Shown piece after piece: positions 2,526 to 64,000 of a stretch of DNA of 64,000 nt. This DNA comes from Mytilus californianus (Eukaryota), in NCBI RefSeq assembly GCF_021869535.1, contig NW_026262581.1, forward strand, positions 115,568,001 through 115,632,000, written 5' to 3'. How positions within the stretch are numbered: position 1 is the first letter of the stretch; every line of letters starts with the position of its first letter. A model generated the notes under the pieces. That model saw nothing but the letters and a program-made list of their open reading frames with translations, did not search any database and was not told the origin of the DNA. The translations under genes were made by a program, and so were the position numbers.

Positions 2526-4735
2526 ATTCAGTATTCCACTCTGGATTATTACAGTCAGCCCAGGGTAGATCACTCGTGAATGAAACAAACAGATAGTAAT
2601 ACGACCAAGCTAAGATCATGTTGTAGTATAATGATGTAAAACCAGAGACCAATACCATCGCAATTCCAACACCTTTAAACATAGGTGCAAACTTCCAGCA
2701 TGTCATTGGTCCACTGCTACAGAACTGACCAAGAGATGCCTCCATAAAGAAAAGGGGAACACCGATCAATCCCATCATCAAAACAAACGGAATAAGAAAG
2801 GCACCACCCCCGTTCCTGTAGCACAAGTAAGGAAAACGCCACACATTTCCAAGGCCGACAGCATATCCAAGAAGTGAGAGAAGGAAATCAAATCTTCCTG
2901 ACCAGTTTCCACGATCTTCATTTTCATCTTTTCCGAATATCAGCTTTTTGCTGTCTGTTGTTTCCACTGTAACCCCTGTACCCTGTTTAAATAGATCATT
3001 TATATCTATTATAATCTTCTAATGGCATGTTAAATGATTGAGTTAAGAGTGTAATTAAGAATTCTATACGAACTAGTATCAAGAAAGACATGACAAAAAA
3101 TAAAATGCATATAGGCTTGTTTTTATACGAATGAATAATTGATGCAAGGATAAAGCGTGGCATGTCTGATAATCAATTCATTAGTGTGTCCATCTATCTG
3201 AATGCGTCTCGCGATAATTTTACTTCAATTGAACTTTTGATTTGTTTTATAAAATATTTGGTGCCATAAAGTCTGGCTCTATTCAGATTTGCTGTTTTAT
3301 TACACTCTAATATCGGCCGTTGTTCTTCCAAGTAAATTTTAGGCAGCCACGTCATGTATAATCGAATACATTTGACCACAACATAAAAATACAGAACAGA
3401 AAATAATTTCTAGTCGTATTTCAAACTGCAAATGAGTGCGTCGACATAATCTCCAAAAAGTGGTTCAATGATTTCATAAAAGCATCAGAGATACAAACTT
3501 ACCGTAGAAGGTGTCCTGGAATATCCCCTTTTGTCATCGTAGATGCCAGAGTCCCGGGAAATTCTTATTTGTTTGCTGTCTACAGAACTTTCCTCTGAAT
3601 CATAATAGTCTCGTCTGGCCTGAGTAATCATAAAACTAAGTTTATAACAAAACGCCAAGAGAAGACAAAACAATCATTGAACATAGTATTCGCTGGATAT
3701 CATGATACCCGAAAGAGTGAGTTTAAACAAACTTTCAGTTTCATTTTATGCCCATATCGACTAACTGTTTGATTGGTTTATTTCTTATGCCAAATGAACG
3801 GTCCATGAAATCAAATATGGAAGTATCCCTGGTAGTTCAAACATAGTTACTGTTCAAAGCAAGGACAAAGAGACCAGACACAAGTCTCGTCTCTATAGCG
3901 GTAAAAGTTACATACATATTAGTTTTCCTTGCATTATACCCCTTGCCATACACTAATTTATAGTGGACTTTTTTACTTTTATTTTATTTTTGGACGGTTC
4001 TTCGAGGAAAATAATAGCTGGAAATTAGTCTTTACTTTTTGTACAGACTCTTTTTTTAAGTTTTGAACGACAGAACTCTTAAATATGATGGCTCAATTGT
4101 ATCTCGTTTTGAACCAGGAAGTTCTTCATTTATATTGAATTATTGACAAAACCTCCTAATATACATTCTCAAACAGATAGAATCTTGCAAATTCTAGAAA
4201 ACGGTATGCCAATTTTTGATTGATTGCTTAATTGGTTGATTATTTCATAACGCCAGTCAGCCCGAAACTGCTATATCACGACGTGAATATACAACAGCAT
4301 GGTTTACAAAGAAATATATGTTTAATGTATGAACAAATGATATTGCGTAATTAAAAAAAAATGGACAATTCTTTTATTAATAACTCATAAAATCAGGTTT
4401 TAGTTATTATATGTATCCGTGTTTAAAGGTTTTTCCTATGACAAACCACATTATCCACTGATCCATGAAGATTGACATATTTTAGTCCATGTTTACAATA
4501 CATGTCGTTTTCTTTAACAAAATATGTACCTGATATTAAATTTAATCAATGGAATGTATATACTTTGTTGTTATTTTTTACCTTAATTCATAAATGTACT
4601 TTAACGTTTTGTATACAATTTAACTATCTACAGATCTCATATGATAGCTAATTCAGTTGCATAAAGGTAATATAACAAATTACTTAATTAAAAATAACTT
4701 ACGCCTCCTTTAAGTCCAGGTTTTGTATTTGACAT
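2526..4735 (-). CDS. SLC6 Na+/Cl--dependent transporter (GlyT/PROT/ATB0,+ subgroup-like), 5' part; exons 4735..4703, 3619..3503, 2982..2526; continues beyond position 1
   Basis: Exon 2982..2526 encodes [43 protein letters not shown]...GQF...YYNMILAW...LPWADC (SLC6 TM1-TM3 signature), with acceptor ttaaacag| and donor |gtaag. The upstream exons join in phase 0 ([11 protein letters not shown]|[11 protein letters not shown]...RTPST|GTGVTVETT). The 33-nt first exon is less certain; ATG 3631 is an alternative start. Confidence 0.88.
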
Positions 4736-29842: not shown

Positions 29843-32800
29843 CAAAGTACAACGGATCAACTCAGCCATCAATAACCAACTCCTCTGACAAAATAGACAC
29901 AAAGTACAACGGATCAACTCAGCCATCAATAACCAACTCCTCTGACAAAATAGACACAAAGTACAACGGATCAACTCAGCCATCAATAACCAACTCCTCT
30001 GACGAAATAGACACAAAGTACAACGGATCAACTCAGCCATCAATAACCAACTCCTCTGACGAAATAGACACAAAGTACAACGGATCAACTCAGCCATCAA
30101 TAACCAACTCCTCTGACAAAATAGACACAAAGTACAACGGATCAACTCATCCATCAATAACCAACTCCTCTGACGAAATAGACACAAAGTACAACGGATC
30201 AACTCAGCCATCAATAACCAACTCCTCTGACAAAATAGACACAAACTACAACGGATCAACTCAGCCATCAATAACAAACTCCTCTGACGAAATAGACATA
30301 AAGTACAACGGATCAACTCAGCCATCAATAACCAACTCCTCTGACAAAATAGACACAAAGTACAACGGATCAACTCAGCCATCAATAACCAACTCCTCTG
30401 ACAAAATAGACACAAAGTACAACGGATCAACTCAGCAATCAATAACCAACTCCTCTGACGAAATAGACACAAAGTACAATGGATCAACTCAGCCATCAAT
30501 AACCAACTCCTCTGACATAATAGACACAACTCCTCTGACAAAATAGACACAAAGTACAATGGATCAACTCAGCCATCAATAACCAACTCCTCTGACAAAA
30601 TAGACACAAAGTACAACGGATCAACTCAGCCATCAATAACCAACTCCTCTGACAAAATAGACACAACTCCTCTGACAAAATAGACACAAAGTACAATGGA
30701 TCAACTTAGCCATCAATAACCAACTCCTCTGACAAAATAGACACAAAGTACAACGGATCAACTCAGTCATCAATAACCAACTCTTCTGACGAAATAGACA
30801 CAAAGTACAACGGATCAACTCAGCCAACAATAACCAACTCCTCTGACAAAATAGACACAAAGTACAACGGATCAACTCAGCCATCAATAACCAACTCCTC
30901 TGACAAAATAGACACAAACTACAACGGATCAACTCAGCCATCAATAACCAACTCCTCTGACGAAATAGACACAAAGTACAACGGATCAACTCAGCCATCA
31001 ATAACCAACTCCTCTGACAAAATAGACACAAACTACAACGGATCAACTCAGCCATCAATAACCAACTCCTCTGACAAAAAAGACACAAAGTACAATCGAT
31101 CAACTCAGCCATCAATAACCAACTCCTCTGACAAAAATGACACAAAGTACTATGGATCAACTCAGCCATCAATAACCAACTCCTCCGACAAAATAGACAC
31201 AAAGTACAACGGATCAACTCATCCATCAATAACCAACTCCTCTGACAAAATAGTTACAAAGTACAACGGATCAACTCAGCCATCAATAACCAACTCCTCC
31301 GACAAAATAGAGACAAAGTACAACGGATCAACTCAGCCATCAATGACCAACTCCTCTGACAAAATAGACACAAAGTACAACGGATCAACTCAGCCATCAA
31401 TAACCAACTCTTCTGACGAAATAGACACAAACTACAACGGATCAACTCAGCCATCAATAACCAACTCCTCTGACAAAATAGACACAAACTACAACGGATC
31501 AACTCAGCCATCAATAACCAACTCCTCTGACAAAATAGACACAAAGTACAACGGATCAACTCAGCCATCAATAACCAACTCCTCTGACAAAATAGACACA
31601 AACTACAACGGATCAACTCAGCCATCAATAACCAACTCCTCTGACAAAATAGACACAAACTACAACGGATCAACTCAGCCATCAATAACCAACTCCTCTG
31701 ACAAAATAGACACAAAGTACAACGGATCAACTCAGCCATCAATAACCAACTCCTCTGACAAAATAGACACAAACTACAACGGATCAACTCAGCCATCAAT
31801 AACCAACTCCTCTGACGAAATAGACACAAAGTACAACGGATCAACTCAGCCATCAATAACCAACTCCTCTGACAAAATAGACACAAACTACAACGGATCA
31901 ACTCAGCCATCAATAACCAACTCCTCTGACAAAATAGACACAAAGTACAACGGATCAACTCAGCCATCAATAACCAACTCCTCTGACGAAATAGACACAA
32001 AGTACAACGGGTCAACTCAGCCATCAATAACCAACTCCTGTGACGAAATAGACACAAAGTACAACGGATCAACTCAGCCACCAATAACCAACTCCTCTGA
32101 CGAAATAGACACAAAGTACAACGGATCACCTCATCCACATTAACAAACTCCACTAACAAAATAAACACAAAGTACAACGGATCAACTCAGCCATCAATAA
32201 CCAACTCCTCTGACAAAATAGACACAAACTACAACGGATCAACTCAGCCATCAATAACCAACTCCTCTGACAAAAAAGACACAAAGTACAATCGATCAAC
32301 TCAGCCATCAATAACCAACTCCTCTGACAAAAATGACACAAAGTACTACGGATCAACTCAGCCATCAATAACCAACTCCTCCGACAAAATAGACACAAAG
32401 TACAACGGATCAACTCATCCATCAATAACCAACTCCTCTGACAAAATAGTTACAAAGTACAGCGGATCAACTCAACCATCAATAACCAACTCCTCTGACA
32501 AAATAGACACAAAGTACTACGGATCAACTCAGCCATCAATAACCAACTCCTCCGACAAAATAGACACAAAGTACAACGGATCAACTCAGCCATCAATAAC
32601 CAACTCCTCTGACAAAATAGACACAAAGTACAACGGATCAACTCAGCCATCAATGACCAACTCCTCTGACAAAATAGACACAAAGTACAACGGATCAACT
32701 CAGCCATCAATAACCAACTCCTCTGACAAAATAGACACAAACTACAACGGATCAACTCAGCCATCAATAACCAACTCCTCTGACAAAATAGACACAAACT

Positions 32801-34493
32801 ACAACGGATCAACTCAGCCATCAATAACCAACTCCTCTGACAAAATAGACACAAAGTACAACGGATCAACTCAGCCATCAATAACCAACTCCTCTGACAA
32901 AATAGACACAAACTACAACGGATCAACTCAGCCATCAATAACCAACTCCTCTGACAAAATAGACACAAACTACAACGGATCAACTCAGCCATCAATAACC
33001 AACTTCTCTGACAAAATAGACACAAAGTACAATGGATCAACTCAGCCATCAATAACCAACTCCTCTGACATAATAGACACAACTCCTCTGACAAAATAGA
33101 CACAAAGTACAATGCATCAACTCAGCCATCAATAACCAACTCCTCTGACAAAATAGACACAAAGTACAACGGATCAACTCAGCCATCAATAACCAACTCC
33201 TCTGACAAAATAGACACAACTCCTCTGACAAAATAGACACAAAGTACAATGGATCAACTTAGCCATCAATAACCAACTCCTCTGACAAAATAGACACAAA
33301 GTACAACGGATCAACTCAGCCATCAATAACCAACTCTTCTGACGAAATAGACACAAAGTACAACGGATCAACTCAGCCAACAATAACCAACTCCTCTGAC
33401 AAAATAGACACAAAGTACAACGGATCAACTCAGCCATCAATTACCAACTCCTCTGACAAAATAGACACAAACTACAACAGATCAACTCAGCCATCAATAA
33501 CCAACTCCTCTGACAAAATAGACACAAAGTACAACGGATCAACTCAGCCATCAATAACCAACTCCTCTGACGAAATAGACACAAAGTACAACGGATCAAC
33601 TCAGCCATCAATAACCAACTCCTCTGACGAAATAGACACAAAGTACAACGGATCAACTCAGCCACCAATAACCAACTCCTCTGACAAAATAGACACAAAG
33701 TACAACGGATCACCTCATCCATCAATAACAAACTCCACTAACAAAATAAACACAAAGTACAACGGATCAACTCAGCCATCAATAACCAACTCCTCTGACA
33801 AAATAGACACAAACTACAACGGATCAACTCAGCCATCAATAACCAACTCCTCTGACAAAAAAGACACAAAGTACAATCGATCAACTCAGCCATCAATAAC
33901 CAACTCCTCTGACAAAAATGACACAAAGTACTATGGATCAACTCAGCCATCAATAACCAACTCCTCCGACAAAATAGACACAAAGTACAACGGATCAACT
34001 CATCCATCAATAACCAACTCCTCTGACAAAATAGTTACAAAGTACAACGGATCAACTCAGCCATCAATAACCAACTCCTCCGACAAAATAGAGACAAAGT
34101 ACAACGGATCAACTCAGCCATCAATGACCAACTCCTCTGACAAAATAGACACAAAGTACAACGGATCAACTCAGCCATCAATAACCAACTCTTCTGACGA
34201 AATAGACACAAACTACAACGGATCAACTCAGCCATCAATAACCAACTCCTCTGACAAAATAGACACAAACTACAACGGATCAACTCAGCCATCAATAACC
34301 AACTCCTCTGACAAAATAGACACAAAGTACAACGGATCAACTCAGCCATCAATAACCAACTCCTCTGACAAAATAGACACAAACTACAACGGATCAACTC
34401 AGCCATCAATAACCAACTCCTCTGACAAAATAGACACAAACTACAACGGATCAACTCAGCCATCAATAACCAACTCCTCTGACAAAATAGACA
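29843..34493. repeat. 57-bp minisatellite array, about 81 units, 4.65 kb, with higher-order block duplications
   Basis: Unit acaaagtacaacggatcaactcagccatcaataaccaactcctctgacaaaatagac. Diagnostic variant blocks recur at offsets of about 1.2, 1.6, 2.55 and 2.78 kb. Confidence 0.97.
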
Positions 34494-45252: not shown

Positions 45253-46110
45253 TTTTTGTCGAGCCTTCGACTTTAGTCGAAAAAGCGAGACAAAGCGATT
45301 CTACATTCCGTCGGTGCCGTCGGCGGTGGCGTCCACAAATATTCACTCTGTGGTTAAAGTTTTTGAAATTTTAATAACTTTCTTAAACTATTCTGGATTT
45401 GTACCAAACTTGGACAGAAGCTTGTTTATGATCATAAGATAGTATCCAGAAGTAACTTTTGTAAGAATAAAATTCCATTTTTTCCGTATTTTACTTATAA
45501 ATGGACATAGTTTTTTCTGCTGGGAAACAATACATTCACTCTGTGGTTAAAATTTTTAAAATTCTAATAACATTCTTAAACTATCCTGGATTTGTACCAA
45601 ACTTGGACAGAAGCGTGTTTATGATCATAAGATAGTATCCAGAAGTAAATTTTGTAAAAATGAAATTCCATTTTTTCCGTATTTTACTTATAAATGGACT
45701 TAGTTTTCTGCTGGGATACAATACATTCACTCCGAGGTTAAAGTTTTTTTTAAATTTTAATAACTTTCTTATACTATCCTGGATTTGTACCAAACTTGGG
45801 CAGAAGCTTGTTTATGATTAAAAGCTAGTATCTAAAAGGATATTTTTTGTTAAAATTTTGTACCTGTTTATCTGTATTTTACTTATAAATGGACTTAGTT
45901 TTTCTTCCAGTTAACATTACATACAGTCTGAAGTTAAATTTTTTAGATTTATAAACTATCCTGGATTTTTACCAAACTTGGACAGAAGCTTCTTAAAATA
46001 AAAAAAAATAGTATTGAGAGGAATATTTTTATTGATGTTTTCCTCATTTTTGTTGAGCCTGCGATTTACAGCAAAAGTAGGCGAGACACTGGGTTCCGCG
46101 GAACCGTTAC
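45253..46110 (+). mobile_element. Helentron-associated non-autonomous element (HINE/CvA-like) carrying about 3.5 tandem 190-195-bp units
   Basis: T-rich 5' end ttttgtcgagcct...gcgagaca, then a GC microsatellite-like tract, tandem units (ttcactctgtggttaaa...accaaacttggacagaagc...), and a 3' ttgagcct...gcgagaca followed by the perfect palindrome ggttccgcggaacc (46092..46105). A truncated copy lies at 55621..55745. Confidence 0.7.
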
Positions 46111-55320: not shown

Positions 55321-56153
55321 AGTAGGCTTGCTTTTTTTTTTGGTGAGAGAGATTGACTCTGACTCTTTTAATAATTCATATCCACACAAACAATTCAAAC
55401 GAGAAAACTAACGGCCTGATTTATGTGCAAAATAATGAAAGAAAAACAAATATGATACAGCAACAAACGACAACCATTACAATGACTTGGGACAGGCACA
55501 TACCGAATGTGGCGGGGCTAAACTAATTTGAAGGCGCCATCCTGTCCTAACCTGGGTACCCACTCTATTAACCTGAATATATTGTTTACATCTCATCTCC
55601 AAACAATTTTTAATGGTGTGGTTTTTGTCGAGCCTGTGACTTTTGTCACAAACGCGAGACATAGCGATCTTTACATTCCATCGTCGTCGGCGGCGGCGAC
55701 GTCCAGAAATATTCACTGTGTGGTTAAAGTTTTTGAAATTTTTTTTATGTCTCGCGTTAAAGTTTGGTATCATGTATCATGTTTTTTTATGTCTCGCGTT
55801 AAAGTTGAAAACGAGGTTCAATGGTGGAAGTTGGTTATTGGTACTCTCGTAAAATTTAAAGTTTTATTTAGTGAAAGGGGACTTCTAAAGTCCAATAAGT
55901 AGTGAAAAAACAGACAATTGACACTATCTAACACAATACATTCGAATTGCCCACACACAATTCCTAAATTATCATTATCCAGTATATAACAACGAGCCGG
56001 TAGGCAGGACCACTGACGAAGTTTCCCGCGCCATTTTGAATATAGGCCAAACATCAACAAAAACTTCTAAAGTAAACAATTCAATAATAAATATTAATAG
56101 AAATACACGCCCGCCTATCCCCTAACCGCGGTGAATTCATTTGAAATCCGCTC

Positions 56154-56885
56154 ATGTCAGAGAAGAAAATACGAGACTATTTACCAAAATCAAGACCGCC
56201 CTCAGTTGGCATAAAATCATTAACACCCGTCGTACTCTCCGACAGTAAAGGGGTCTATCTAAAGACCCAAGCCTATCATCCTGAAGACAAACAAATTATA
56301 TGGTGGAATAAAAGTGGAGCAAACATCAAAAACTCCCTACACTGGCTGGAGAGAAACATCAAAAGCAAAATAAAAGAATTGGGAAATATACATTTATACA
56401 TTTGGCTCGGAACATGCTACCTGACCTCAAAAAATAAAGACCGTACTATATCATTGGCAAGCCAACATTCTTCAGCAGCTAATAATATATTTGAAGATCT
56501 TAAAAAATTTCAAACACTAGTTCAACAATACCCAAACTCCAGATTAACATTCGTCGAAATTCCACACTATTCAATAACCAAATGGAACGCTCGAGCTAAA
56601 AACCCGTCTACTGAAGACCACATCAATCAAGACCAAGATTTACATGAACAGATAGTCGAAATAAATAAGAAAATTCAAGAACTGAACGCCTCCCTCAAAG
56701 TACAATCACCACTTCTTAATCTACACCTAAAAGCAAGTAAAAAGGTCAAAAGAGGCAAAGATAAACCGCGCAAGCAGTATATTAATTATCAGCTTTACCT
56801 CGATGGGATACACCCTAAGCCTATATTAGCCAAAGCTTGGCTCGCTGAATTCTCTACTCAGATCAGGACAGACTGTTGGCATTAA
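56154..56885 (+). CDS. SGNH/GDSL esterase-like ORF of the LINE, 243 aa
   Basis: Block I VVLSDS, block II SGA, block III IWLGTC and block V DGIHP in the expected order and spacing. Confidence 0.8.
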   Translation: MSEKKIRDYLPKSRPPSVGIKSLTPVVLSDSKGVYLKTQAYHPEDKQIIWWNKSGANIKNSLHWLERNIKSKIKELGNIHLYIWLGTCYLTSKNKDRTISLASQHSSAANNIFEDLKKFQTLVQQYPNSRLTFVEIPHYSITKWNARAKNPSTEDHINQDQDLHEQIVEINKKIQELNASLKVQSPLLNLHLKASKKVKRGKDKPRKQYINYQLYLDGIHPKPILAKAWLAEFSTQIRTDCWH

Positions 56886-57013
56886 ACAAAAACATAGTAT
56901 ATTTGGTGTGGATCAGAAGGCATGGGATGACCAAGCCACGCTGCTGAAGCACTAAGTATATTATTGAACATTTTCAACAGTCCGAACGAGAAACAACAAT
57001 CAAACGTATAAAC

Positions 57014-59025
57014 ATGGCTGCCCTAGTCGCTACAAGTAAATCACGTACTAGATCTAGAACCGTGGCAAATAAAGAATTTTGTATCCAAAATTACACCTTA
57101 AACATCACAAAGGCTATTAATAAAAAACTTGAGGCTACCAAAAGAAATATAAGTGTTGAATATAAACACACCAAAGGAGGGTTAGTACTAACGGCGGATG
57201 CGGTTACATTTGAATTGCTCAAACTAGCAACATTAAGCTACTTTGAAAACTTTGCCGAAAGCAAAGGCCAAGCAACCATCAGAGAAATAACAGATAGGTC
57301 ACAAACAACAGTAGTACAGCATATAGTCAAAGTGTCAGCAAATAAAGACAGCTATACAATTAACATATACAACACTACTAGCCGGCTATTAATTAATGGA
57401 AATGGTGCTAACAAATTCTTGGACAATGACATAAATAACATACATAACATTGTACTCAAAAGCCTACAAGAGCAAGGAGTTGAAGGACTGAGCACAGAAG
57501 AGCTGTATAGACAACTTGGCAACCAGTTGCAAAATCTTCTACACAAAGACAACAACTCAACCAACAGAAGAGAGACTAATGAAAAACTGGAAGTAGAAGA
57601 CGGCAATGAAACATGCACTAAATGCAATAAAAGATGCAAAACAAGGAGCACCTACTGTAATAAAGGAAGCCACTGGGTCCACTATAAGTGTCAAAAACTA
57701 AGTGAGCTGGAGATACAGAGAGCAGAAAACTCTAATGGTGATGAATATTATGAATGTAAACTCTGCATTGCTGCAAAATCAAATATACTAGCTCTAGAAG
57801 GAGGTACACAGAGCCACACAAATGCTCAGTTGCTGCTCGCAGAGGAAACTGAAGCTAAGAGAGGATACAACTCAGACGAGACACCCGACACACCTCCAGA
57901 AGAGCAAAATTGTACAGTATGTGATAATATACTTATGAATCCTGAATGGGATATATGCGAACAATGCAATAGCAAGTGCCACTTCAAGTGTATGACAGAA
58001 ATAAGCACAGCATACATATGCATACCCTGCATAATGATCCAAGACGAGTTACAACTTAAAACTCAAGAAAATGACAAAATCACAGCTAGTCCAAGTATAT
58101 GCAACAACACCTGCATTAAAAGCCCAATGAAATATCACGTAAACCAACGTCTGTGATAGCAACATCAACAACAAAGCCAAAACCAATACCAAAACCTAGG
58201 AAATTAAAACAAAATCAGAAAAGCTCTGAGCCTGAGGATGCAATCTTACCTAAACTGAGTGAATTAAGAGCAAGAGAACTCAAAGTAAGAAAAGCAGAAG
58301 AACAATTAAAAATCAAAGAGAAGTCCCTCAATGAGATACAAAATGATAGAGTACTATTAGAGTCCAGATGCCAACAGCTAGAGGCAAGAAACTTCGAACT
58401 AGAACAGACTGTTAAGCTGCTCAAGAGAAGAATAGAGTCGAATAGCAACCTAACTATACCGACATTGACCAACTCCAAGGAGTCAATGCAAGGCAACCAA
58501 GATAGTTTTCATAAAATGAAAGAGCAACTCGATGAAAAATTAGCAAAGCTATATACTAAACTTTCAAACATTGTGATAGATGAAATGGGTCGACAAATTG
58601 ACAAAATCAAGCCCTTTGATGACTGTCTACATACATCTGAAGAAAGATTAAAGGCAACCCAAGGGATGGAAGACGGAAACGTTCCTAGTAATATCAAAAA
58701 GCCTCAAAAGGAGAATATAGCAAATACATGTATCAGACAAGCAACACAACAGTTAACAGGACAACCCCTGATCTACAAACCACAAACGCCAAAACATCAA
58801 GGCCAGTACTATAACGCACCAGTATACATGCCAAGTTCAACAGTGGAAGCCCAAAAGAATGAACACCACGACGCTCGCCACATACAACCTTGGGCAAATA
58901 ACTGCTTGTACCCCCCAGTTCGTAATATGAATGTACAGAAACAAACAAGCCTAAGGAATACTACACAAACTCTAGTTCAACAGCCTTTTTTAGCAGTACA
59001 GAGCCTCAACCCAAGCCATATGTAA
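57014..59025 (+). CDS. LINE ORF1 (two PHD fingers plus coiled coil), split by a frameshift near 58118 into 57014..58156 and 58153..59025
   Basis: CTKC...C..C..WVHYKC...YECKLC and CTVC...CEQC...CHFKC...ICIPC are PHD patterns; LRARELKVRKAEEQLKIKEKSL...LEARNFELEQTVKLL is a heptad region. One extra A in attaaaagccc would fuse the two ORFs. Confidence 0.75.
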
Positions 59026-62000
59026 CCAACAAATCAAGCGTCAAAACACCAGAGAGTTCCCAACTGCATCTAATTTCATTTAACTGTAAAAACATAAAAA
59101 CCTGTGGTCCAATAATACACAAACTCCTACAATCTAACGACATAATTCTTATTCAGGAACATTGGCTATTTCAAACACAGATACATCTTCTTGGCGAAAT
59201 CCACGAAAACATAAATTACATAGGCAAAGGAGTTGATGTAAACGAACCACTGTTACCGATATGTATGCCCCGAGGATATGGAGGAGTGGCTATCTTGTGG
59301 AAGAGAGAAATTGACCACTTGATAAAGCCAATCGAACTAGGGTCAGAAAGGATACAGTGTGTGGAAATAAATGAAAACAACAATCCAAACATAATATTAA
59401 CATCAGTTTATCTGCCAGCAAAAGGGAGTAAAAATCATCTGTCTGAATACCAAGAAGTTATCGATCAATTATACGAACTATACCAAAAGTATAATGAAAC
59501 GCACAAAATCATCATAGGAGGCGATCTAAATGAAGATCTAAATATACAAACAGGCACGAAACGCAACCTCTATCTCCGTGATTTCATAAATGAATGCAAC
59601 CTGAAATACGACAATAGAGAAAGGACCTTTGTTAACTCACTTGGGCAGGAATCATCAGAAATAGACTATTTTCTGCACAAGCTGCCAGAAAATGAATTTG
59701 TCAACAAACAAGTACTCAACAACGTGACAGAAAACACATCCGATCATCACCCAATTCGTATGAGTACCAAATTCAGTTACGAATGCGCAAATATCAGTCA
59801 TGCGCAAGCTAGCAGCAAAATTGCAAAAAGGGTCAATTGGGACAAAGTAGACAAAGAATGGTATTCTGCTCACATCAACATGCATATAGACAGCCTCCAG
59901 ATAAGAGAAAATATGGAAGAAACATCAATTGAGCAAGCCACAACCAAATTATGTGAACTTCTTAGAGAAACAGCTAACCTAACATCATCATCAAAGGCAA
60001 AATTCAACGCAAAGCCGAAATTAAAAGTATGGACGCCCGAAATACAAGTAGCGTTGAAAATTGCAAGGCAAAAATATAATGTTTGCAAACATCACGGGAG
60101 ACCCAACAACAAAAGTAACGTAATGCTCCAGGAGAAAAATCAAACTAAGAAGAACGTCCGTCGGGCAATAAGAATAGAGATTGCTAAAATAAGAGACAAG
60201 GAGAAGGAAAATATTCTCGAAACAAGAGTAAAGGATACAAAAATGTTCCATAAACTCGTACGTAACAACAGGAAGAAAGGAAATGTAATCACGGAGCTAG
60301 AGGTTAACGGAGTCAAATACACAGAAAGTGAAAATATCATCACTGGATTTGAGGAACACTTTAGAAATCTAGCAACATTTAATAACCAGACAGACATAGA
60401 TAGCACATATCATAACCAAGTTGAAGATGATATTCAGAGTATAAACCGACTCGTGCAACGTAATAACATCAGAAACGTAACGCACAATGAAATTACAAAT
60501 GCAATCAGATCAATAAACAGAGGTAAATCTGCGGATTTCCAGGGCATAACCATCGAACATATTATCCATGCAGGATCCGACATAGAAACAACGTTAGTAA
60601 CACTCGTGGAATGTATCTTCAAGCACGGAATTGTATCAGCATCATTAAAAATGGGACTACTAACACCAGTTTTCAAAAATAAAGGAGCAAGACAGCAAGC
60701 TACCAACTATAGAGGAATTACAGTGCTACCAGTCATAGGCAAAATAATTGAAACCGTCATCAAAGAGCGTACGAATAACAAAGTATTAGAAACACAAAAT
60801 AAAAGACAGAGAGGTTTCACTGCAGGATCATCACCAATGAACTCAGCGCTGCCAATAGAAGAAAGTTACAGAGAATCCAACGACAACAACACAACTTTCC
60901 ACCTGGTACTCTTAGATGCCAAAGCAGCATTTGACACTGTTATTCATAGTCATATGCTCAGAAGAGTTTTTATGTCAGGAATTGATGATGGACACTGGGG
61001 ACTGATCAAAGATCTACATGAAAACGCTAAAAGTGCTATTAAATGGGAAGGAAACATCTCGCAGCCATTCAACGTTAACCAGGGAGTGCGACAAGGAGGT
61101 ATACTTAGCACCAATCTCTACAAAATATACATCAACCAGCTATTAAACATGTACGAAACAACTGAGGCAGGATATAGAATAGGAAACATAAGTGTAAATA
61201 GTACTGCATGTGCAGATGACATCGCACTAATTAGTGAAGAACCAGACCAAGCGCAACTGCTTATAAACATGGCATGTGATTATGCATATATGGAAGGCTA
61301 CCAATTACAACCTACCAAAAGTGTAGTCCTCAACGTAACCAACAGGAAGCGAAAACATGACCCCGAAACAACAACCTTTACTATGGGCCCCCACGAAATG
61401 CCATCAGTGAAGAGTGCCACACACTTAGGAATCATCAGAACCACGTCACTAAAAGAAAACATGACTGCTAACGTGGAGGAAAATATAAAAAAAGCAAGGA
61501 GAAGCGCATATAGCCTCCTTGGAAGAGGATTTCATGGTCATAACGGATTAGATGTAGAGACAATGGTGCATCTATACAAAATATATGTATCTCCAGTACT
61601 TCTCTATGGTCTAGAGCTAGTATTACCAACAGCAAGCTCATTAGCACTAGTCGAAAACTTCCAAAAAAAGCTACTTAAGCAAATACTTTCACTACCAACT
61701 TGCGTAGCAGATATAACTATTAACATCTTAACCGGAATACTACCAATAGAAGCCCAACTACATATCCGAGCACTTGGACTATTCAACAACATCTGTAAAC
61801 AGCCCGAAGAAAGCATAGAAAAATCACTAGCTAGACGACAACTTATCCTAAAAAACAACCAAAGTTCTAGTTGGTTTGTCGCTATAAAACATATGCTCAG
61901 GAAGTACGATCTACAAGAGGCTACATGGTATCTGGATAACCCCGTAAAAAAATCCTTATGGACCTCAAACATCAAGAGAACAGTACATAACTACTGGAGT

Positions 62001-62504
62001 AAACCAATAGTGCAACTACTGCCACTATATAATGGACTGGACCATCTCACAACAGGAAACCTGGAAAAAGGGAAAATTCATCCTCTGTTCAAAATTAACT
62101 GCCATTCAGCCATAGATACGACAACACTACCAGTTAAACTTAAGCTGCTTACTGGATCCTATATACTACAAAGCAAACGTATAAAAATGTACAAGGACGA
62201 AACCGATCCGAAATGCCTTCTATGCTCAAAGGATGACGAAACTGTGACCCATTTCATATTAAAATGTGAACAACTCCATAATGTAAGGAATAAGATACTA
62301 CTAGAAACAGGTGTTGTACTAGACAGTCTTGGAATCAAATTTAATGAACTTTTGGACAATGAAAAGTTGCAATTAATTCTGGACATCACACCGGTTGCAA
62401 CATCAAGAAAACTCTCTCCAGCCAGTGTAGCAAAAGTAGAACGCCTAACTAGACGCTTGATATACCAGCTACATATAGCCCGTTATAAGATAGTATGCGG
62501 TTGA
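58986..62504 (+). CDS. LINE ORF2: APE endonuclease, reverse transcriptase and C-terminal zinc knuckle; frame open upstream of the first ATG (59265)
   Basis: ISFNC...LIQEHW (upstream of ATG 59265), GGVAILW, GGDLN, IDYFL, SDHHPI; RT QRGF, LDAKAAFD, GVRQGGILS, CADD; CLLC...ETVTHFILKC. No stops over 1079 aa from ATG 59265. Confidence 0.92.
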   Translation, partial: FFSSTEPQPKPYVTNKSSVKTPESSQLHLISFNCKNIKTCGPIIHKLLQSNDIILIQEHWLFQTQIHLLGEIHENINYIGKGVDVNEPLLPICMPRGYGGVAILWKREIDHLIKPIELGSERIQCVEINENNNPNIILTSVYLPAKGSKNHLSEYQEVIDQLYELYQKYNETHKIIIGGDLNEDLNIQTGTKRNLYLRDFINECNLKYDNRERTFVNSLGQESSEIDYFLHKLPENEFVNKQVLNNVTENTSDHHPIRMSTKFSYECANISHAQASSKIAKRVNWDKVDKEWYSAHINMHIDSLQIRENMEETSIEQATTKLCELLRETANLTSSSKAKFNAKPKLKVWTPEIQVALKIARQKYNVCKHHGRPNNKSNVMLQEKNQTKKNVRRAIRIEIAKIRDKEKENILETRVKDTKMFHKLVRNNRKKGNVITELEVNGVKYTESENIITGFEEHFRNLATFNNQTDIDSTYHNQVEDDIQSINRLVQRNNIRNVTHNEITNAIRSINRGKSADFQGITIEHIIHAGSDIETTLVTLVECIFKHGIVSASLKMGLLTPVFKNKGARQQATNYRGITVLPVIGKIIETVIKERTNNKVLETQNKRQRGFTAGSSPMNSALPIEESYRESNDNNTTFHLVLLDAKAAFDTVIHSHMLRRVFMSGIDDGHWGLIKDLHENAKSAIKWEGNISQPFNVNQGVRQGGILSTNLYKIYINQLLNMYETTEAGYRIGNISVNSTACADDIALISEEPDQAQLLINMACDYAYMEGYQLQPTKSVVLNVTNRKRKHDPETTTFTMGPHEMPSVKSATHLGIIRTTSLKENMTANVEENIKKARRSAYSLLGRGFHGHNGLDVETMVHLYKIYVSPVLLYGLELVLPTASSLALVENFQKKLLKQILSLPTCVADITINILTGILPIEAQLHIRALGLFNNICKQPEESIEKSLARRQLILKNNQSSSWFVAIKHMLRKYDLQEATWYLDNPVKKSLWTSNIKRTVHNYWSKPIVQLLPLYNGLDHLTTGNLEKGKIHPLFKINCHSAIDTTTLPVKLKLLTGSYILQSKRIKMYKDETDPKCLLCSKDDETVTHFILKCEQLHNVRNKILLETGVVLDSLGIKFNELLDNEKLQLILDITPVATSRKLSPASVAKVERLTRRLIYQLHIARYKIVCG

Positions 62505-63546
62505 TAATAATAAGGATAATGACTTTAAAAGGAAAAGCTAACCACTACCATAACAGAAGAAACAATACCTTAGCCACAAAACTCATATATACTAGTCAAT
62601 TTACAGAGTGTAACATAATGAACCTATTTTACCATATATACATACTAGTGGTGACACTTTACTAAAGTGTGCGATCTTATATCGAAATTATCTTAAATTA
62701 TATATAGCCAACAGAATTTTAAGCAATATATGGATTATATAAAGGACTTTTTAGAAGAACCGAATATAACTTTTAGACAATACTTTACTATATATCTTTT
62801 AAATCATGAGGAAGAGGCACTCATTCTTTTATCATCTTACCGTGATAGGAAAACAAATGATAATGTTATTGATATCTTACAGAAATGAGTTATACTTTTA
62901 AAGCATATCTAGCTACGTATACAAAACGGTTAGGGTAACCGAAAACAAATGTGTAACATGCGTGTATATATATATAAAGAAAGAAAGGAATTTTATATTA
63001 TATAGTGACTGGCTTTTAACCACCGTATGATAGGCACAGAAACATTTTAATTATAAAACAAAGGATTTTTAATATAAGTGTGTGTGGGTAGGATTTCACT
63101 GTAAATATAGAGCACTGCAACATATTGGTGGAGGCATCACTGTACATAGAAATTGCGGATCACAAGTTCTACATACTAGCGTATGGTTCCTCTACAAAGG
63201 GGGTTAAAGATACAGAGGTAAGGTAAGGTTAATATTAATTATGTGGAAAACAAACGGGCCTGGAATGGTGTAATTTTTAATCAACACCATTGTCCTATAT
63301 TAGTTATATATAAAGCTGAATTCTTTGATTCGTCGTTTTTACGTCATGCCGGCTAACAAATTGGGCCTCGTTATTTTAGTAGTATAGACTAGAAAAAGGG
63401 TTGAAGACTACTTGAAATGTTTATGGTGATACACAGGTTGGGTTCGTGTTTCTCAAACTGTTTTTATGCACTGGTGCATTATGTTGATAGTTTTGATTAG
63501 TTTGTCATTTATTCTTCCATAGGAGTTTGAATGTCCAATTAGTAGC

Positions 63547-63960
63547 TTCTGTCTCGGTGTTACACAGGTGCTCCTAGAACGGAGGAAATAACTCAGAGAA
63601 GAAGAAGACAACCTAGAACACTGATTATAAAACATTTCTCAGTGGTGCTAGTTTGTAGTATTTCTTTTTTTTTTTCGAAAGGTGCGAGTCAAGTTCTGTC
63701 TCTATGAGATACAGGTGCTCCAAGAACGGAGGAAATAATAAACAGAAGACAATTTAGAACTCTCTGATTATTTAAAACATTTCTTCAGTGGTTCGAGTTT
63801 GTAGAATTTTTTTTTCCGAATGGTGCGAGTTCTGTCTCTGTGTGACACGGGTGCTCCGAGAAAGGAGGAATTTAGTAAGAGGAGAAGAAAACAATCTAAT
63901 GATTAAACACATTTCTTCGAATTTGTTATATTTCTTCTTTTTTTTTTGAATGGTGCGAGT
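63547..63960. repeat. Three diverged tandem units of about 135-145 bp
   Basis: Each starts ttctgtctc...caggtgctcc.agaacggagga and ends ...gaatggtgcgag. Confidence 0.75.
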
Positions 63961-64000
63961 TTGATAAAGTGATGTAAGTTGTAATAATAAGTGAGAGTGT

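Follow-up and report, generated by a model that had tools for sequence, protein, structure and literature searches.

A conserved slippery heptamer points to programmed -1 frameshifting between ORF1 and ORF2 in a mussel LINE and its relatives

Introduction

Signals for programmed -1 ribosomal frameshifting usually, but not universally, include a stem-loop or pseudoknot 5-9 nt downstream of the slippery site, and the shift site of the human immunodeficiency virus (HIV) has a 3' stem-loop. Here we analysed a long interspersed nuclear element (LINE) of approximately 7 kb that is located within 64,000 nt of DNA from Mytilus californianus (assembly GCF_021869535.1, contig NW_026262581.1, positions 115,568,001 to 115,632,000 of the forward strand). 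This whole stretch is referred to as the window, and positions are counted from its first letter. The element is a mussel (Mytilus-like) LINE with three open reading frames (ORFs), an SGNH-esterase-like ORF0, ORF1, and ORF2. As judged from the sequence, the junction between ORF1 and ORF2 is probably a programmed -1 ribosomal frameshift site that would yield an ORF1-ORF2 fusion.

The heptamer at this junction, U_UUU_UUA, is named as the HIV shift site in PMC5009743. HIV-1 gag-pol and the mussel element have in common the heptamer and its register, the joining of a structural ORF1 to a reverse transcriptase (RT) ORF, and a predicted mix of Phe and Leu at the junction (PMC5009743). In contrast to gag-pol, the mussel element is a retrotransposon without long terminal repeats (non-LTR) in which no protease domain was seen in a Pfam scan, and its clade lacks a conserved 3' stem-loop and keeps the zero-frame stop codon nearby at a fixed spacing. 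For TRE5-A and TRE3-A of Dictyostelium, which are likewise non-LTR elements that carry an endonuclease of the apurinic/apyrimidinic (APE) type, a -1 frameshift is needed for ORF2 according to a review legend (PMC5911963). However, these elements are amoebal and belong to another lineage, and the passage concerned names neither a slippery site nor a stimulator. Mammalian L1 and silkworm SART1 resemble the mussel element in their bicistronic RNA and low ORF2 output. Both are described as producing a separate ORF2 protein by termination-reinitiation (PMC5972666), whereas ORF2 of the mussel clade overlaps ORF1 and mostly lacks an AUG. In barley yellow dwarf virus (BYDV), a 3'-distal sequence 4 kb away is reported to pair with the shift region (PMC5009743), and 3 of 12 elements studied here pair well with their own 3' end; unlike in BYDV, no bulged stem-loop occurs at the LINE site, and a test of own versus other 3' ends was not significant. 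Elements of Paramecium are described as using a +1 shift, reinitiation or readthrough.

ORF2 expression has been worked out in few LINEs, and in those it occurs by reinitiation; a conserved, testable signal of the retroviral type across a LINE clade would change that picture. We found no publication that describes such a signal for Proto2, RTE-X or any further animal LINEs, in a search that left subscription papers and Repbase Reports largely outside, so that a prior note is possible. The word 'frameshift' has no occurrence in the main text of PMC10294476, a study with an RT alignment of such elements. The predicted fusion would tie RT to the ORF1 particle. Gene callers mis-model elements of this kind, and consensus builders may 'correct' the shift.

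The ORF1-ORF2 junction of the window copy

On the forward strand, ORF1 ends with CAA CAG CCT TTT TTA GCA ... ATG TAA (last base 59025), with CCT TTT TTA at 58984-58992. The heptamer TTTTTTA (58986-58992) lies in the X XXY YYZ register of the ORF1 frame. It is the sole in-register heptamer across both pieces of ORF1, and from 57013 to 62504 this A-rich strand has no other run of at least six T. The ORF1 stop codon TAA (59023-59025), which is followed by C (59026), comes 11 codons after the A-site codon TTA (58990). Re-reading of the sequence confirmed the coordinates, register, and stop distance given in the original prediction. The ORF2 frame is set one base back (-1) from ORF1 and is open from 58926 to 62504 (1192 codons); an open frame had been noted earlier, but with a start at about 58927. 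Its first ATG occurs at 59265, downstream of the endonuclease motifs ISFNC (59073) and LIQEHW (59148), as had been stated, and the proposed transframe peptide QQPF(F/L)SSTEPQPKPY follows correctly from the sequence. Among the features expected of a frameshift signal, an in-register heptamer and a -1 frame that is open into the downstream domains without an initiator are present, while no conserved 3' stem-loop was found by folding.

A fraction of the ribosomes would probably slip back one base on U_UUU_UUA, and the slipped ribosomes would make, in gag-pol fashion, an ORF1-ORF2 fusion carrying endonuclease and RT, with a low ratio of ORF2 to ORF1 product being predicted. In the window copy itself, a break in ORF1 upstream of the site would prevent frameshifting by ribosomes that begin at the normal start. 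One base is missing at 58132, which causes ORF1 to stop early; the original prediction had overlooked this break. Contigs of sequencing runs X4 and X9 have one extra base there, and ORF1 is continuous across 58132 in three M. edulis protein models (P0301, P0308, P0312).

Conservation in the family and among related elements

The main family contig (run X4, depth 261) spans 58380-59700 and shows 6 differences in 1321 bases and no gaps; none of those listed (58589, 58949, 59249) lies in the heptamer or creates an ATG. Three M. edulis protein models cross the junction, none of them with a Met ahead of the endonuclease. An in-frame ATG before ISFNC, which would have counted against the original prediction, is not shown by the family. 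The roughly 6% of raw RNA run X22 that was covered contained 0 reads of the element, which weighs neither way.

Using an endonuclease alignment of 34 sequences, we retrieved 44 metagenome and 9 genome loci. Two scans of viral contigs yielded no relatives. A quick tree of 50 rows, from which four loci were left out as too short, contained a clade of 37 rows (SH-aLRT, the approximate likelihood ratio test, of 99) and 13 rows outside. The junction was missing in three rows of the clade and readable in 34, and 29 of these 34 carry T TTT TT in register. The other five have either a degenerate site (L001, L002, L009) or an in-frame UAG (L027, L035). Outside the clade, a run of at least six T occurs in L034 only, where nine T include an in-register position. 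We left out of further counts L016 (seven T and one stop, of the L010 family), L023 (a near-duplicate of L049), and the outgroup L034. The remaining 27 distinct elements have a median endonuclease identity of 37%, with four pairs above 70%.

In these 27 elements, the run consists of exactly six T followed by A (23/27, UUUUUUA) or G (4/27, UUUUUUG). All 27 exactly-six-T runs within the 300 nt 5' of the endonuclease are in register, in spite of 17 different linker lengths of 42-201 nt; linker length changed many times, each time by whole codons. Other runs of at least six T number six in the 107,123 nt of these elements, or 0.017 per 300 nt, and in-register six-T runs are thus more frequent than chance. 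From the site to the endonuclease, the ORF2 frame contains no stop in 733 codons, compared to 57 expected at the upstream density. For the 405 of these codons that lie inside ORF1, 31 stops were expected and none occurs. Upstream of the site the same frame has 202 stops in 2619 codons and closes after a median of 8 codons. An AUG ahead of the endonuclease is absent in 22 of the 27 elements, nine have none of ATG, CTG, GTG, TTG, or ACG there, and near-cognate starts are not conserved.

The nucleotide sequence is conserved beyond what the encoded peptide requires: under selection for an xFL peptide only, nnT TTT TTR would have a probability of about 0.07 per element, and it is present in all 27. 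Among 103 ORF1 protein matches, some of which overlap the loci, FL occurs within the last 25 residues in 26 and exactly 12 residues from the end in 16. We take these patterns to reflect a genuine, clade-wide signal in the nucleotide sequence. Distant relatives retain both the heptamer and the -1 overlap, as the original prediction of a fusion had called for, and that reading is supported as far as the checks could run.

Proposed frameshifting and alternative explanations

Several points weigh against a programmed frameshift. A conserved local fold 3' of the site was sought in the 27 elements and none was found (mean z 0.04-0.37, at most 2/27 below -2, pseudoknots being outside the model). In the window, 58993-59080 folds with a z of -2.8 but 58993-59140 with a z of -0.8; given also the values across the elements, the earlier statement that no convincing stem-loop is present largely holds. 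A bare heptamer usually shifts poorly. The distance to the ORF1 stop exceeds 12 codons in 13 of the 27 elements (13-24 codons), and the 27 counts share ancestry and are not independent events. Only three of the six differences in the main family contig are among those listed. Two of the three M. edulis protein models read ALFS and one reads AFFS, so that the first slippery base would have changed in two M. edulis copies, as judged from the protein sequences. The nearest relatives of the window element, L001 and L002, lack the site yet retain the 12-codon spacing and GCCT, and both features may therefore serve something else.

Among the alternatives, ribosomes could reinitiate without an AUG once ORF1 has been terminated, a mode put forward for mammalian L1; CUG 59064, just 5' of the first endonuclease strand, would be one such start, and the T run would then be retained for some other purpose. 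Such reinitiation draws on the use of termination-reinitiation by L1 and SART1 noted above, on the report that mammalian L1 tolerates loss or sense changes of its ORF2 AUG (PMC1965478), which also counts against frameshifting, and on close relatives that appear to have switched to AUG. We consider it unlikely, as it leaves unexplained why the ORF2 frame is open inside ORF1 back to the heptamer and why the six T keep an exact register, and as the near-cognate starts discussed above are not conserved. The sequence ttttttag could instead be a splice acceptor joining an upstream exon to ORF2. Splicing also predicts a frame that is open from that point, and AG follows the run directly in 17/27 elements, with CAG at 10-15 nt from the run start in eight more. 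However, the required AG is absent directly after the run in 10 of the 27, which weakens an alternative that had been raised earlier; L010 lacks any AG within 25 nt, and AAG is the only one in L006. Since the phases differ (0, 1, and 2), no pyrimidine tract is present (pyrimidines make up 0.466 of the upstream 14 nt, the same as in the background), and 24/27 elements have an AG within these 14 nt (background 0.63), splicing is disfavoured and quite unlikely. Variants such as TTC, CTA, or TTTCAG do not occur, and none of the seven joints listed from 169 contigs has GT..AG ends or an end at 58993, with contigs showing presence and not absence.

It is very unlikely that RNA polymerase slippage adds a U within the run to give in-frame fusion transcripts. 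L016 has seven T at the site (4349-4355), which places ORF1 directly in the ORF2 frame, and protein P0052 runs straight from ORF1 into the ORF2 frame, while its relative P0242 does not; the extra T in L016 and P0052 may reflect assembly error, decay, or slippage. Reverse transcription of slippage RNAs would leave elements with seven T, but 27 of 29 runs have exactly six. The seventh base is invariably A or G, a property of importance to tRNA re-pairing but not to polymerase slippage. The site could also be functional in the clade and vestigial in this family, whose copies would rely on the ORF2 protein of other families. ALFS in two M. edulis copies, site loss among the closest families, and the broken ORF1 of the window copy would fit such a loss. 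ORF2, however, is intact over 1192 codons, the main contig differs at just 6 of 1321 bases, and no AUG has been gained, and we regard this explanation as very improbable.

Candidate stimulators of the frameshift

If ORF2 is expressed by a programmed -1 frameshift, the lack of a conserved local structure makes this clade well suited to the discovery of a frameshift stimulator of a different kind. The ORF1 stop codon lies 11 codons past the A-site codon (12 from the P-site codon) in 14 of the 27 elements, including the window copy, and never closer among the 27. It is always UAA or UAG, never UGA, and the next base is C in 20/27 compared to a background of 0.24. Ribosome queues ahead of stop codons are reported to recur every 11 codons (bioRxiv 710491), and collided ribosomes are described as being 10, sometimes 11 codons apart (bioRxiv 2023.02.01.526718). 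Because the stop spacing equals that of queued ribosomes, a queue may be the stimulator, and our lead candidate is slow termination at the UAR-C stop. A ribosome terminating slowly at this stop would hold the next one on the slippery codons. Frameshifting in SARS-CoV-2 is reported to be affected by stop distance, with a different route being proposed (PMC8168617). Against a queue stand three FL-bearing ORF1 proteins with shorter spacings near the expected place (9, 11, and 11), the longer spacing in 13 of the 27 elements, and the retention of the spacing in families without the site.

Other candidates for the stimulator would be a factor that binds to GCCU, or base pairing to the element's own 3' end. 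In the window, GCCUC is located at 59003-59007 on the plus strand, starting 10 nt 3' of the heptamer, and GCCU occurs 10-11 nt past the site (GCCT at +17/+18) in 14/27 elements, with a GCCT background of 0.38 per 10-nt window. Arteriviruses are known to have a motif with a bound protein at a comparable distance. No shared local pairing partner for GCCT was found across the 27 elements. PCBP is mentioned for arterivirus frameshifting in PMC5009743.

In the window copy, three helices are possible between 59002-59024 and the element's last 45 nt, with pairing to 63178-63220 (-21.4 kcal/mol, shuffle p 0.015). Such pairing with the own 3' end is strong in 3 of 12 elements (the window copy, L004, and L009); for L046, the end used in the test with its junction was that of L024, which is nearly identical and of the same family. 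Compared to shuffled ends, the Fisher p was 0.006 for a window that was chosen afterwards and 0.075 for single helices, with 0.54 and 0.08 in control windows. Permutation of own versus other ends gave p values of 0.32, 0.55, and 0.13 in three windows. As pairing is weak in the other 9 of the 12 elements, it was not adopted as a mechanism.

Apparent switches in sister families

In all four families whose site is degenerate (L001/P0099, L002/P0098, P0097, and L009), a Met lies 5-15 residues ahead of the endonuclease. It is carried by L002/P0098/P0100, P0099/P0106/P0321, P0097 with its cluster, and L009; L001 itself has Ile there. A Met in this region thus occurs in 4/4 degenerate-site families versus 5/27 site-bearing elements (Fisher p 0.004; with the families treated as two events, p is 0.05). 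Where ORF1 is readable, in three of the degenerate-site families, the FL peptide has decayed, and FL would therefore seem to be a side effect of the RNA signal.

Expression of a single fusion by either frameshifting or readthrough is the retroviral pattern. In the sister pair L027 (556-645) and L035 (759-850), the upstream ORF, called ORF1 by position only, and ORF2 share one frame across a single UAG. A hairpin of -39 kcal/mol (z -4.6) starts 8 nt past the UAG in L027 and is likely a readthrough signal in this sister lineage; L035 is decayed and has no such hairpin. The clade would thus offer natural switches among three modes of ORF2 expression. It is conceivable, though less likely than not, that a whole clade of animal LINEs makes RT by a structure-free -1 frameshift, in which a slow-terminating UAR-C roadblock one ribosome length (11 codons) ahead would let ribosome load set ORF2 output, and that sister lineages switch among frameshifting, UAG readthrough, and AUG reinitiation.

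Structure and classification of the element

All parts of the element lie on the plus strand. ORF0 (56154-56885) is a separate ORF resembling SGNH/GDSL esterases. Its AlphaFold model (pTM 0.80) matched GDSL/SGNH hydrolases in a fold search, 63 of them at E<=0.001; sequence searches against Pfam and PDB gave no match of the SGNH/GDSL family, and the fold search alone was informative. PMC3905857 reports an esterase encoded in an ORF of its own for CR1, RTEX, and Penelope. ORF0 homologs occur 5' of the endonuclease in seven loci and 5' of ORF1 in several relatives. The window ORF0 sits 128 nt 5' of the ORF1 ATG (56154-57016).

ORF1 (57014-59025, in two frames) would encode two Cys-rich PHD-like fingers, with Pfam finger matches below the cut-off, and a coiled coil. 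The ORF2 frame comprises a linker, an APE endonuclease from 59073 (Pfam Exo_endo_phos, 1.8e-10), an RT at about 60684-61334 (RVT_1, 2.5e-21), and a C-terminal CCHC finger (62214-62267). It is followed by a 715-nt 3' untranslated region and the element end (62505-63229) with two terminal AAGGT repeats (63220-63229); the end resembles that of the relative L004 (78% over 66 nt). APE endonuclease, RT, C-terminal finger, and short tandem 3' repeats together identify an APE-type non-LTR retrotransposon. A target-site duplication was looked for at the element and not found.

The best protein match of the element is from M. edulis (90% identity). In the RT alignment of PMC10294476, the closest sequence noted is B.platifrons_109_LINE, about three quarters identical by eye and not by tree, which is labelled Proto2 in Table S7 of that study. 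Three further look-alikes in the alignment are all labelled Proto2, and the study remarks on some discordance between Proto2 and RTE-X labels. Going by this closest classified RT, matched by eye, the element appears to be a Proto2-type LINE of the RTE superfamily. Three short motifs of the family are absent from the first 354,000-377,000 characters of two library files of PMC10294476; a consensus may lie further on.

The 3' ends of L012, L014, L024, L045, L050, L051, and L053 share a layout, as seen by eye, of a hairpin, GGTG, a second hairpin, and a short tandem repeat, which is probably an RT recognition signal. L045-L053 are near-whole animal-type LINEs in metagenome-assembled genomes of Sedimenticola and Thiodiazotropha, probably host DNA in the bins, and 'bacterial' RT entries matching LINEs of this type occur among the protein matches.

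Other repeats in the window

At 29843-34493, a 57-bp unit with strong strand skew is arrayed in 80 copies. As 57 is a multiple of three, this array may represent a coding exon of repetitive sequence. At 45341-45950, a unit of 193 bp occurs in about three copies. Just 5' of the LINE, 55623-55743 resembles 45253-45372 at 85%, and to the right of the LINE, 63520-63990 contains several diverged copies, identified by eye, of a unit of roughly 130 bp.

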